Source: Pseudogymnoascus verrucosus
Lineage: Eukaryota
Assembly (NCBI GenBank): GCA_001662655.1
Contig: KV460210.1
Length of the DNA stretch: 64,000 nt
Reading direction: 5' to 3' (one strand)
Position numbers and translations under genes: made by a program. This document shows, piece by piece, positions 31,396-35,596 of the stretch; positions within the stretch are counted from its first letter, which is position 1; the number at the start of each line of letters is the position of its first letter. The notes beneath the pieces were generated by a model, which ran no database searches, had not been told where the DNA came from, and saw only the letters and a list, made by a program, of their open reading frames with translations.

Positions 31396-32223
31396 CTCCC
31401 AAGTTGTCACTAATAGTAAGGTTATGGGCTACTTCAAGCTCTGTGATTGGTCAGTTAGCGAAGGCGTGAGGAGGGATGGCGGTAAGAAGCGCCCCACGAG
31501 AGTGCCGCCACCGGATGTACTGGAGTAGAGAAGGTACCTGATGTGTCTGCAAAAATAGTATTTCAAGACAAGTACCTTTTCTAATCCTTGGTGCAGGGGG
31601 TACAAGTGCACCGTGTCCTGAGTAGCAACTCTAACTAACATACGGCTATTGTACCTGGTGAATGACTCTGTGCACTTCGGTGTATCACTCTGTGTACCGA
31701 AGTGGCTAAAACTCTATATTTCATACTCTGTCCATATCTAAACGGCTTCAAAGTGGCAAATTGTATATTTGTTTACTTCGTTGCGTTGTTTACTTCATAG
31801 AACTCCAGTTCCTCTACTCCACGCGCAACTGAATCAGCTGCTTTCGTCTCAAACAAAAGGAGGCAGGGTGTGAGACATGCAGCAGTAGCTCAACGAGGCT
31901 AGGGATCCCGCCATCCATCTTCAGCCTCGCCTCTAGAGTAAATACAGCAAGGTCATTAAATAGCACAATCCTCCAGGAATCAAGGGGTTCAAGCCACAGC
32001 GGAAGGAAGGGTGGCAGGCAGGAACGAACGAAGGAAGGAAGAAGGCCACAGTTACCAAAATAAAATAGCTCCACAACCCATCAGTCATCAGTCATCAGTC
32101 ATCAATGCCAGACAGACCAGATCATACACCGTAGCACTTCGTCTTGGCACCAACATCACTAATCACTCACACACACACCAAGCATGGGTCCCAACAAGTA
32201 ACACAAAGTGCAGAACACGCTGT

Positions 32224-34980
32224 TCATTCTATCAACCCCGCCGCAATCGTCTCCCCCCCACTCCTCAACACAACCCTCTGTCCCTTCTCCAGCGGCACCG
32301 CCATCTCGAGCTCCACGCTCACCCTCGCAATATTCGCCGGCCTCACAATCCGCGGCTTCTTCTTCGTCACCTTCCCACTACTCTTATCCAGCGTAGCTAG
32401 TAGCTCTGTCACGCGCCCCGCGGCGTGCAGGCGGCCGCGGTGAACATCGATGCCTGAGGGCATTAGGAATTCGAAGGCGAGGACTTTGACTACAAAGGTC
32501 TTGATGCATTGTATTGGACTGGAGGGGCTGCATAGCACGTCCCCGACCTTGAGGTGGATGGGGTCGATGCCTGTCAAGTGGATAGTGGCGTTTTGCCCCG
32601 CCACGGACCAGTCCGCGGTCTCGTTGTCAACTTCGAGGCCCTTGACGTAGCATTTTTCGCCGCTGGGTTGGGCGAGCAGAGCGTCGCAGGTTTGGAGCGA
32701 TCCGGCTTCGATGCGTCCGGAGACGCTGAGGGGGTTCTGAACGCCGCCGCGGAAGATGTCACCGATCGTGAATCGTAGCGGCTTATCCAGCGCGCGTGTC
32801 GCCGGCTCGGAGTTGTCCAGTTCTTCCACCAGAGTTGACCCTGTGTACCAAGATGCCGCTTCCTCTGTACACCTTCGTGCGATGTTGTCCCCATGTAGAC
32901 CCGAGACCGGGATGAAAGTGACGTTCTTGGCCTGGAAGCCTGCGGCGGTCAAGAATGCTGACACCTGCTGTGAGATCTCATCGAAGCGGTCTTGGGACCA
33001 GTTGACGGTGTCGAGCTTGTTGATTGCAATGATGAGTCTTTGAACACCCATGCTGCGAGCTAGTAGTGCATGCTCCTTTGTCTGGCCCTTTAAGCCCGAC
33101 TCAAACGAACCCGTGCTAGCATCGATAACCAAGACGGCGAAATCTGCCTGACTAGCCCCCGCGATCATATTAGGGATGAAATCCCTATGGCCAGGCGCAT
33201 CGAGAATGGTAAAGGCGGTTTTCTCAGTCTCGAACTTATTCGTTGCAATGTCGATTGTCACACCCCTATTTCGCTCCTCCGTTCCTTGATCCAACACCCA
33301 AGCCAAAGCAAACGAAGACTTTCCAAGTTTCTCCGCTTCCTTGCGATACTTGTCAATAGTCCGCTGGTCGATGACATTCAAATCTAACAATAGACGTCCC
33401 ATCAACGTGCTCTTACCAGCATCAACATGACCTAAAAACCATAAGCCCTACACCACCAACCACTCGCAGCAAAACCTACCAATAACCACAAAATTCGCCG
33501 CATTCTTCGCCTTCTTCTTCTCAAACTCCGCCAACACATCCAGATTCTTACTCGTCGCCCTCGGCGTATCATCCATCCTCATCGCCTCCACCCCACTCGC
33601 AATCTGATCCGCCTTCTTCTCATTGCTCGTCTTAGCAGGCGGCTTATCCTTCTTCGCAGCTGCTCCCATTAGTTCGGTTAGTCATCTATGCTCTCCGCGG
33701 AATCGCTGGCTGTGCCGAACCTTTCGACTGTGCCGCTAGCACCTGGTCATCGGGGCTGGGCCCTGCAAATGCGTCGTCAGTGGGCTGTAAATGGGGGTCT
33801 GAGTACGGCAAAGTAAACGCAGCGGATGGGGCCTGGCGGAGGCTTGGGAGGGTGTCCCCGAACATCGTTGCTGCGAAGGCGGACGGCGCGGCAGCTTCGA
33901 CTTCGGGTATGGGCTCGATTGGAGGTGGGCTGGGGGAAGCTGGGACGGAAGCTGGTGGCCGCGATTCTTGCTTATGGGGACTTGAATCTTTGCGCTTCAA
34001 CCCTGTATATTTTCTGACGGTGTTCTCTTTCCCGGAAGCGGTACGAGACCCTGATGGAGCTGTAGAAGCTGAGCTTCTGGCACTGCTCTCATCGTTGCCA
34101 GACTTCGCCCCCAGTGACAAGCCGGCCATAGGCTTTGTCACATCGCTGGCTCCAGCATTATTCTTCTGCTCTTGGGCGTTCTTCTTACGGGCAGCAGCCA
34201 AAGCTTGAAGCTTGGTCATTTTAGGAGCTGCCTCGGGATTCCCACCCATTAAACCACCACGGGGATATAAAGGCTCGATAAAAGTCGTCCGTCTGTCCTC
34301 GGGTACGTTGAACCAGCTCATATCCTTCCAAAAGTCGGCTGGTATAAACGGATTCGAGCAAGTTGTAGGAGGCGGTGACATATATTCTGCAAAACCATCG
34401 GGTTAGCTACAATCCCTTCAATAATCCATGGCAATGAAAGAGGTGACGCACCTCCGGAACCATAGCTACCCCCCATTCCCGCGCCCATGCCCTCCTCAAG
34501 CTCGCCCTGCCGCCAAGCCATATCCCCAAGCTCAAGATGAGAAAATAGTGACCCACCTTTCGCCTTCTTCTTTCCCGTCTCCTTCTTCGCCGTTCTCGAC
34601 TGCAGGAGGTAATTCACGCTCTTCTCAACGTCGTAAAAGTAATGCCACAGCGCCTCTTGTATATCCTTATCTGTAATCCCCGGTACGTCGTCACCGAGAG
34701 CTTCGCGTACCGATATCGTGCCTACTCTCATAGACTCTGTTGGTGGTCAGTCTTAGACCTCACAGGGGAGAAGCGGGGTAGATATGGGAAGGGCGAACCT
34801 TTGTCTTCTTCGCTGAGCTCTAGGGACAGGGGTTAGCAGGGCTCTTTATGGTATGCATGCGGTGGAATGTGAAGGGGAATACCAACCTTCAGCTCCGTCG
34901 TCGGCGTAGTCTTCTCCGCCGTCGTAGTCGTCCATCTCGTCGTCGAGGTCCATGTTCTTGACTATCTTATGGCGCGACAT
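32224..34980 (-). CDS. HBS1: Hbs1/Ski7 translational GTPase (alternatively spliced)
   Basis: MSRHKIVK start, HBS1 N-domain (IQEALWHYFYDVEKSVNYL), Ski7-like segment, GHVDAGKST, RGVTID, DAPGH, NKLD, LRSGGETIAAG. Introns include 34387/33763-34556, 33660-33720 and 33432-33479. 21-nt exon at 34799-34819. Confidence 0.94.
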
Positions 34981-35596
34981 GGTGGCGGTGGTGAGCTTCT
35001 TGCTCGTCGAACTTTGAAGGGATGGTATCTATATGTAAACGAGAAGCAATACAGCAAGTATCTCTTAAAGCAAACAAAAATAAACCCTCGTGAAACTCTT
35101 TGTTAGAATAAATGAATGCCGTGGCACGGAAACAACATGTTGGCAATCCAAGTCGCTTGCCCTTGATAGGTCGTCATTATCCCAGCCACAAAGTGCGGGG
35201 CGGGGAGCCAACAAATTACCCCTCCAAAGGCTCGGCTTCAGCCTTGCACAACCCAAACACCTGAACACAACATAGTATAGCACAACACAGGAAAGAACTT
35301 CAAAATGATCTAAAGTTTAAGATATATTATCTAATTATCACCGAGTTTAATCTAAGAGGAGTGATGCCATATTTATATCCAAGAAACCCAGGTATCCCCA
35401 AAACCGCTGGGGATATCCCCACCAAACGCCTCCCAAAAATCCTCCCTTCTATTCCCTTAAAACCCCATCCTTTCAAGTCATTCCATCCAATCGTTGCCGT
35501 TCCCAGCTTTATTAAGTATATTCGCAAAAAGCAGCCGCAGAAGGATGTTATCTAATCCTTCTATCTACCATTATATATGGGTATAATAGGCAAAAC

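Follow-up and report, generated by a model that had tools for sequence, protein, structure and literature searches.

One donor and two acceptors in a SKI7/HBS1 gene of Pseudogymnoascus, a probable source of Ski7-type and Hbs1-type proteins

The use of both alternative 3' splice sites of a SKI7/HBS1 gene was demonstrated in Aspergillus nidulans by reverse transcription polymerase chain reaction (RT-PCR) (Marshall et al., 2013, PMC3597508), and the splicing event is listed as conserved with A. fumigatus (Hurtig et al., 2020, PMC7491326). Alternative 3' splice sites also operate in Lachancea kluyveri, where complementation assigned ski7 to the long form and hbs1 to the short one; most ascomycetes carry a single SKI7/HBS1 gene, and independent SKI7/HBS1 duplications are documented in two yeast lineages (PMC3597508). 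In this study, we analyse a gene of this family on the minus strand (34980-32224) of a stretch of 64,000 nucleotides (nt) of Pseudogymnoascus verrucosus (assembly GCA_001662655.1, contig KV460210.1), which is referred to as the window.

According to Pfam, the gene encodes an N-terminal HBS1 domain together with a translational GTPase of the eEF1A/eRF3-like type. It is very probably the single SKI7/HBS1 gene of a Pseudogymnoascus-like leotiomycete (Pseudogymnoascus belongs to the Thelebolales, within the Leotiomycetes), in which one donor and two acceptors give rise to a Ski7-type long protein and an Hbs1-type short one. An earlier note made from the letters of this DNA had started from the premise that one fungal gene can supply both proteins by splicing, which is right, given the RT-PCR results in A. 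nidulans (PMC3597508). It must be noted that the mechanism is already known in Pezizomycotina and that the locus is a further member of that group; the main finding is ordinary because the event has been published for A. nidulans (PMC3597508). The one lead towards real novelty is the coding-like, selectively retained intron 4.

Gene layout and the two splice junctions

Logan contigs of four runs labelled 'RNA?' were aligned to positions 32000-35200 at 80% likeness. Three organisms and four studies are represented: X1 comes from organism A, X3 and X15 come from organism B (two studies) and X4 comes from organism C. Their RNA label is a guess, and they were judged to be RNA from their GT..AG joints: each of the five predicted ordinary introns appears in the contigs as an exact GT..AG joint, and therefore the runs contain complementary DNA. 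When the exons were joined by coordinate and their frames were read, the gene resolved into six exons and five introns, with the following features.

34887-34980, minus strand: exon 1, ATG start at 34980-34978; joint 34819/34887 in 4/4 RNA-type runs
34799-34819, minus strand: exon 2, a 21-nt micro-exon (ELSEEDK) between two short introns; joints 34736/34799 and 34819/34887 in 4/4 runs
34557-34736, minus strand: exon 3, HBS1 N-terminal domain common to all forms (Pfam HBS1_N, E 2.1e-19)
34551-34556, minus strand: donor GTGGGT in phase 1 (cgaaag/GTGGGT), used for both acceptors; intron from 34556, one codon base (G) staying in the exon
34387-34556, minus strand: proximal intron of 170 nt, with branch-like GCTAAC (34407-34402) before the acceptor AG (34388-34387) (GCTAAC...TTTTGCAG)
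33763-33780, minus strand: branch-like CTGAC (33780-33776) and the AG (33764-33763) of the distal acceptor, each of them overprinted on codons (CTGACGACGCATTTGCAG)
33763-34386, minus strand: toggled Ski7-like segment of 624 nt or 208 codons, in the long form only (frame, alignment A1, profile match, RNA contigs)
33721 to 34386 (long form) or to 33762 (short form), minus strand: exon 4, its start set by acceptor choice and its end at 33721
33721-33762, minus strand: 42-nt part of exon 4 that both forms share (G-PSPDDQVLAAQSK; frame and RNA contigs)
33480-33659, minus strand: exon 5, lysine-rich linker (frame and RNA contigs)
32224-33431, minus strand: exon 6, translational GTPase with P-loop GHVDAGKST; stop TGA at 32226-32224

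Exon 6 matched the Pfam families GTP_EFTU (E 8.4e-50), D2, D3 and eEF1A_C, and no Pfam family was matched in the toggled segment or in exon 5. Use of the proximal acceptor yields a product of 782 amino acids (84.5 kDa) and use of the distal one a product of 574 amino acids (62.5 kDa), both in the same frame and with the same stop codon. The difference between them is exactly 624 nt, or 208 codons free of stops, within which lie KLQALAAARKK (34213-34181) and PSAFAATMF (within 33895-33860), and the junction of the short form reads ...KKAK-G-PSPDD. Once the frames had been recomputed, the donor at 34556, the acceptors at 34387 and 33763, their common phase, the length of the segment, its two peptides and the short junction all proved to be as the earlier note had given them.

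Both of the junctions that the note had named for a search in RNA are present in spliced contigs of relatives. The distal joint, 33762/34557, is of the GT..AG type, skips 794 nt and occurs in all four runs, with depths of 6.9, 54.5, 52.3 and 345.7. The proximal joint, 34386/34557, which skips 170 nt, is listed for X15 with a depth of 316.4 and a side of 30. In X3 it takes the form of a loose end of 28 letters at 34557 that fits the start of exon 4 in the window at 24/28 positions by eye and encodes EYMAPPPTT, as do the public Pseudogymnoascus models P0002 and P0003. The proximal joint is thus seen in 2/4 runs, in one of them by the loose end only, and the toggled segment is covered by RNA contigs in 4/4. 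Together with the published Ski7 motifs and the conserved internal acceptor of the segment (see below), these junctions support the note's inference that the locus makes a long Ski7-like and a short Hbs1 isoform by alternative splicing.

The ratio of long to short branch depth was approximately 316:346 in X15, 102:55 in X3, 25:52 in X4 and 3.4:6.9 in X1, and the two branches together give about the depth of the contig that they share downstream (in X15, 316 and 346 against 605). These depths suggest that both forms are abundant, contig depth being a poor measure of amount. They also bear on another explanation of the distal junction, namely splicing noise at a chance in-frame AG in a gene of which only the long protein matters. 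The exon does hold 21 AG dinucleotides that would keep the frame, and 794 nt is long for an intron of a filamentous fungus. However, the distal joint is found in every run, in three of the four at a depth at least equal to that of the long branch, and canonical Hbs1 has its likeness in the short form; it is also the short form that carries the Hbs1 function in L. kluyveri complementation (PMC3597508). With the conservation of the acceptor described below, noise becomes an explanation to which we attach almost no weight.

In the mechanism that we propose, donor 34556 is joined either to acceptor 34387 or to one lying 624 nt further, at 33763, and the branch site and AG of this second acceptor are written into codons. 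Proximal use gives the 782-residue protein, made up of the HBS1 N-domain, the 208-residue segment with a SKI7-like motif and a full Patch 4-like motif, together with the GTPase; by homology, it would be a Ski7-type adaptor that links the Ski complex with the cytoplasmic exosome via the two motifs. Distal use gives the 574-residue protein, devoid of the segment and, by homology, an Hbs1-type partner of Dom34 in ribosome rescue. The gene structure itself, the two junctions in the RNA of relatives and the conserved overprinted signals and motifs are observations; the binding and the roles of the isoforms would follow from those of their homologues in other species.

Conservation of the internal acceptor and of the Ski7 motifs

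The distal acceptor ends at 33763 inside an open frame (TDDAFA/GPSPDD). The exon of the window contains 54 AG dinucleotides, 21 of them frame-keeping, and only that at 33763 has a CTRAY sequence 10-30 nt upstream (at 13 nt). As read from these letters, the case for an internal acceptor would be moderate. The window segment was aligned with eight orthologue sub-stretches (alignment A1), and a scan of metagenome contigs with A1 matched 591 stretches, 99 of which were confirmed and 80 kept, at 31-84% identity. PSPDD was found in 74/80 kept loci. Counting the window's own, 57 distinct 75-nt contexts were obtained, and in 42 of them an AG straddles the same two codons; the metagenome orthologues are related, so that these counts do not represent independent events. 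The four-fold codon before the AG ends in A in 42/57 contexts (74%), against 25.5% of 2781 comparable upstream codons. This codon is GCA, TCA or ACA, that is, the residue varies and the third base, A, is constant. In addition, CTRAY lies 10, 13 or 16 nt upstream in 30/57 contexts, across varied residues (TD, TN, TE, AN and others).

As for the donor, the HBS1_N motif is present as well in 40 distinct loci. The AG occurs in 29 of these, and every one of the 29 shows, past that motif and within the open frame, a GTNNG donor in phase 1, compared with 15 for phase 0 and 17 for phase 2. Across Leotiomycete-like loci the donor aaag/GTGGGT or caag/GTGGGT is kept in phase 1. The overprinting of branch point and acceptor on codons, which had been suggested from the window, thus agrees with the orthologues, in which AG (42/57) and CTRAY (30/57) are retained at synonymous sites. 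This retention is a further argument against noise, and the internal acceptor is not a product of chance because the RNA contigs and its conservation show so. The locus constitutes a clean natural case of a branch site and an acceptor inside codons, which shows itself in many fungi as a synonymous A that is forced.

Five blocks are conserved in A1, two of which are published Ski7 signatures.

33860-33895, minus strand: SKI7-like motif AAAPSAFAATMF, with A1 columns A, P, S, F and A invariant; aligns to ARPSAFASTL of 9g8m_E
33728-33775, minus strand: Patch 4-like motif DAFAGPSPDDQVLAAQ, split at FA/GPSPDD by the distal acceptor

The SKI7-like motif has the metazoan consensus A+PShFAahL (PMC6143672) and the human form RxxxFxxxL; the Patch 4-like motif reads PFDFxxxSPDDIVKxNQ in human and ENFxxxSPDDIIQxAQ in yeast (PMC5389692, PMC7924785). 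In A1, the strings A.PSAFA.TMFG and AFAGPSPDDVV.AAQ are conserved. The short form retains GPSPDDQVLAAQ and loses the Patch 4-like motif's phenylalanine part as well as the entire SKI7-like motif. An A1 profile compared with 177,635 Protein Data Bank sequences at E<=10 returned three matches only, aligned over exactly these motifs: the human HBS1L isoform of exosome complexes, 9g8m_E (E 0.037), and yeast Ski7, 8qcf_L (E 0.52) and 8qca_E (E 3.6). The toggled segment is largely disordered.

A search with the segment gave 126 proteins at E<=0.001. The best were from Pseudogymnoascus, at 97%, 89%, 88% and 85% identity, followed by other Leotiomycetes and then by Sordariomycetes, lichen fungi and Aspergillus/Penicillium; nearly all of the 120 listed of the 126 matches have the HBS1_N plus GTPase architecture. 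This result is relevant to the alternative that the genome has a separate SKI7 paralogue at another place, like Saccharomyces and Schizosaccharomyces, in which case the locus need not supply the Ski7 function. The independent duplications in two yeast lineages provide a precedent for it (PMC3597508). However, the five Pseudogymnoascus proteins with the segment among the 120 listed all have HBS1_N plus GTPase, except P0064, which is partial and devoid of its N-terminus. Moreover, most ascomycetes are single-gene species (PMC3597508), and redundancy would be expected to leave neither the segment nor its motifs nor the alternative acceptor conserved. We consider a paralogue of this kind very unlikely.

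Several points weigh against the two-acceptor, two-protein explanation. All its RNA support consists of Logan contigs from runs whose RNA label is guessed, and this RNA comes from relatives and not certainly from the strain of the window (7/23 X1 pieces are at least 99% alike). The shorter side of the junction contigs measures 27-30 letters, below the 31-letter bridging rule, and likeness was set at 80%. X1, the run closest to the window, shows the distal joint and has no contig over 34247-34460, where the proximal site lies; X4 shows no proximal joint, and a long contig there passes straight through a shortened intron. The Protein Data Bank profile matches are weak (E 0.037-3.6), and a single-sequence search of the toggled segment against the same database at E<=10 gave 0 matches. 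Finally, 15 of the 57 contexts (L022, L032, L053, L058-L064, L066, L067, L074, L075 and L080) have no AG at the usual place.

With regard to these exceptional contexts, in L060, L061, L063, L032 and L067 a CAG, GAG or AAG ends directly before the proline codon, two bases further on. This pattern suggests that in those lineages the acceptor may have moved by two bases with a change of phase. L053 has CAA directly before the proline codon. About ten further exceptional contexts have no AG at either place.

Retention of intron 4 and other variation

The fourth intron is the following.

33660-33720, minus strand: intron 4, 61 nt, donor aaag/GTTCGG; spliced in 4/4 runs and also kept in X3

When it is kept, the frame continues as GSAQPAIPRRA and meets TAG at 33688-33686, so that the stop falls 11 codons after ...AAQSK. 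Combined with the proximal acceptor, this gives 331 amino acids (35.7 kDa), ending 13 residues past the Patch 4-like motif. The earlier note had placed this stop at 33686, correctly by sequence, and had envisaged retention of 33660-33720; such retention was seen in 1/4 runs.

We advance as a tentative reading that the SKI7/HBS1 gene of Pezizomycotina makes three proteins, and that intron-4 retention gives a conserved GTPase-less Ski7 whose basic tail would be under purifying selection, a counterpart of vertebrate HBS1LV3. The third product, for which we hold a functional role to be possible and somewhat short of probable, would be the 331-residue protein of HBS1LV3 type, with the HBS1 N-domain, the SKI7-like motif, the Patch 4-like one and an 11-residue basic tail, conserved in Pezizomycotina. 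It adds to the two-acceptor explanation and does not displace it. The RNA in its favour is record 14 of X3, a 119-nt contig (33632-33750, depth 90.9) that runs unbroken through intron 4, next to a spliced joint of depth 75. Bin arithmetic gives no cover at all for introns 1, 2 and 5 of that run. DNA contamination or general pre-mRNA behind the intron-4 cover of X3 is ruled out because introns 1, 2 and 5 are at zero.

Further support comes from the sequences past the donor (mostly aaag/GTTCG). Read-through stops within 1-16 codons in nearly all loci. Lysine or arginine is among the last three residues in 38/46 distinct tails, compared with 12/33 for read-through of intron 5, taken as a control, and hydrophobic residues make up 16% of the tails versus 37% in this control, the tails being basic and hydrophilic. 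Over the four codons after the donor hexamer, the pairwise difference at codon positions 1/2/3 was 0.44/0.42/0.73 for 15 distinct Leotiomycete-like sequences, while the same test gave 0.67/0.75/0.65 for the intron 5 control and 0.15/0.18/0.48 for the preceding exon. The conservation of the tail equals or exceeds that of the exon in close relatives: P0125 has 71% in the exon and 10/11 in the tail, and P0130 has 66% and 9/11. Distant loci keep the stop at the sixth codon, after a CGN codon, while varying between TAA, TGA and TAG. Precedents are human HBS1LV3 (PMC5389692) and the truncated form proposed for two basidiomycetes (PMC3597508).

On the other hand, retention was found in one run of the four, with zero intron-4 cover in X1, X4 and X15 (bin arithmetic), and X15 is of the same organism as X3. 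Short contigs cannot tie the retention to the proximal acceptor. A premature stop far upstream of the normal one is expected to trigger nonsense-mediated decay, and here it lies about 1.4 kb before it. Early in-frame stops are common in kept introns, and the intron 5 control also stops, at a median of 9 codons. The periodicity test covers 4-6 codons of related sequences. Furthermore, 28 truncated database proteins (27 among the 120 listed of 295 matches, plus P0073) look like the output of open reading frame callers blind to introns and not like transcripts, the 27 beginning inside exon 3 or exon 4 or reading through introns. No truncated Pezizomycotina form was found in the literature searched, which did not extend to Marshall et al. 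(2018, Proceedings of the National Academy of Sciences).

The retention may instead be unproductive, due either to slow splicing of the weak donor GTTCGG or to a regulated poison intron that lowers both isoforms, an explanation to which we give about an even chance. It agrees with the varying level of retention between two runs of one organism (X3 and X15) and with the donor, which departs from the usual fungal GTRNGT and keeps GTTCG in most loci; besides, intron retention in fungi is mostly described as lacking a function (PMC3597508). Under this explanation, the conserved intron start would be an RNA-level splicing signal. However, an RNA signal leaves unexplained the variation at third positions, the basic and hydrophilic composition and the stop that changes its codon at a fixed place.

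A reading of the conserved tail as a longer exon with a later donor was rejected, there being no in-frame GT before the stop. In L031, L036, L040 and L041 the frame continues ...AQ.SK into the linker, that is, intron 4 was lost or never gained, and about a dozen loci have no intron 5 in the P-loop.

If the intron-4-kept form is real, it would change the accepted view that fungal Ski7 always keeps its GTPase, and a tractable model in fungi would become available for the GTPase-less Ski7 of vertebrate type. If the gene does make three proteins, this would suggest that a truncated exosome adaptor is ancestral in SKI7/HBS1 or has evolved repeatedly.

The toggling intron varies in other ways, one of which involves an additional donor.

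34446-34451, minus strand: second downstream phase-1 donor GTGCGT (ggag/GTGCGT), 105 nt past the first; intron from 34451

Its use adds 35 glycine-rich residues and gives a form of 817 amino acids. It is used in X3, where record 17 (depth 32.6) spans 34585-34452 before continuing with the same 28 loose letters as the 34557 junction, and also in the annotated models P0001-P0003. A second phase-1 donor at a similar distance occurs in at least six Leotiomycete-like loci (L001, L002, L006, L008, L010 and L014). In X4, record 20 passes unspliced from exon 3 into exon 4, with 27 nt standing in place of 95 nt of the intron, so that 102 nt remain, a number divisible by three. Straight read-through of the proximal intron is also found in P0004, P0131, P0140, P0176, P0181, P0196, P0211 and P0191. 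Some relatives, in which the proximal intron is open and in frame, may therefore make the long form with no proximal splice at all, an exitron-like variant. In the window itself, keeping the 170-nt proximal intron shifts the frame and brings a stop after 177 amino acids.

The four public Pseudogymnoascus models that were examined (P0001-P0004) contain one long protein each, reached via the downstream donor or by read-through of the intron. None of them represents the short Hbs1-type form, and therefore the predicted proteomes of the genus lack a core factor of ribosome rescue. As a separate observation, P0001 has frame errors in the GTPase and C-terminus relative to the open frame of the window. 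Within the 3' untranslated region, a stretch of 34 nt (32067-32100) with non-canonical ends AG..TC is absent from contigs of X4 and X15, near three tandem copies of GATGACT; this skip looks like a length difference between species and not like an intron.

Comparison with known SKI7/HBS1 systems

A close counterpart is the gene of A. nidulans, likewise the only one of its kind in a species of Pezizomycotina, in which two 3' splice sites serve one intron just upstream of motif S3 (Patch 4-like), the long form carries the Ski7 motifs and the GTPase is present in both forms. The two genes differ in that A. nidulans has four introns, the second being the alternative one, while there are five here, the third being alternative, together with the upstream 21-nt micro-exon. 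The donor lies about 25 nt after the HBS1_N motif in Aspergillus-like loci versus 70-94 nt here. In L. kluyveri, as is predicted here, the proximal 3' site leads to Ski7 and the distal one to Hbs1, although in that species the two functions have been separated by complementation and here they are predicted from homology; in addition, L. kluyveri is a budding yeast with one intron, unlike the present gene.

Outside the ascomycetes, proposed GTPase-less Ski7-like proteins arise in Cryptococcus neoformans and Ustilago maydis when an annotated intron stays, which recalls intron 4 in our locus. These species are basidiomycetes in which the Hbs1 form is made by exon skipping, through a mechanism that the authors left open (PMC3597508). 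In plants, HBS1/SKI7 also toggles the SKI7-like motif, with the Patch 4-like motif directly after it and mostly in both forms; the plant device is a cassette exon and not a pair of 3' sites, and the plant proteins carry a zinc finger (PMC6143672). In human HBS1L V1/V3 and zebrafish Ski7, one gene gives Hbs1 and Ski7 with the same two motifs (PMC5389692, PMC7924785). In vertebrates an alternative exon is the source of the Ski7 form, which is always devoid of the GTPase, whereas the main long form here keeps it and the GTPase-less form is hypothetical. Vertebrate Ski7 ends a few residues past the Patch 4-like motif, as the intron-4-kept form would in this locus.

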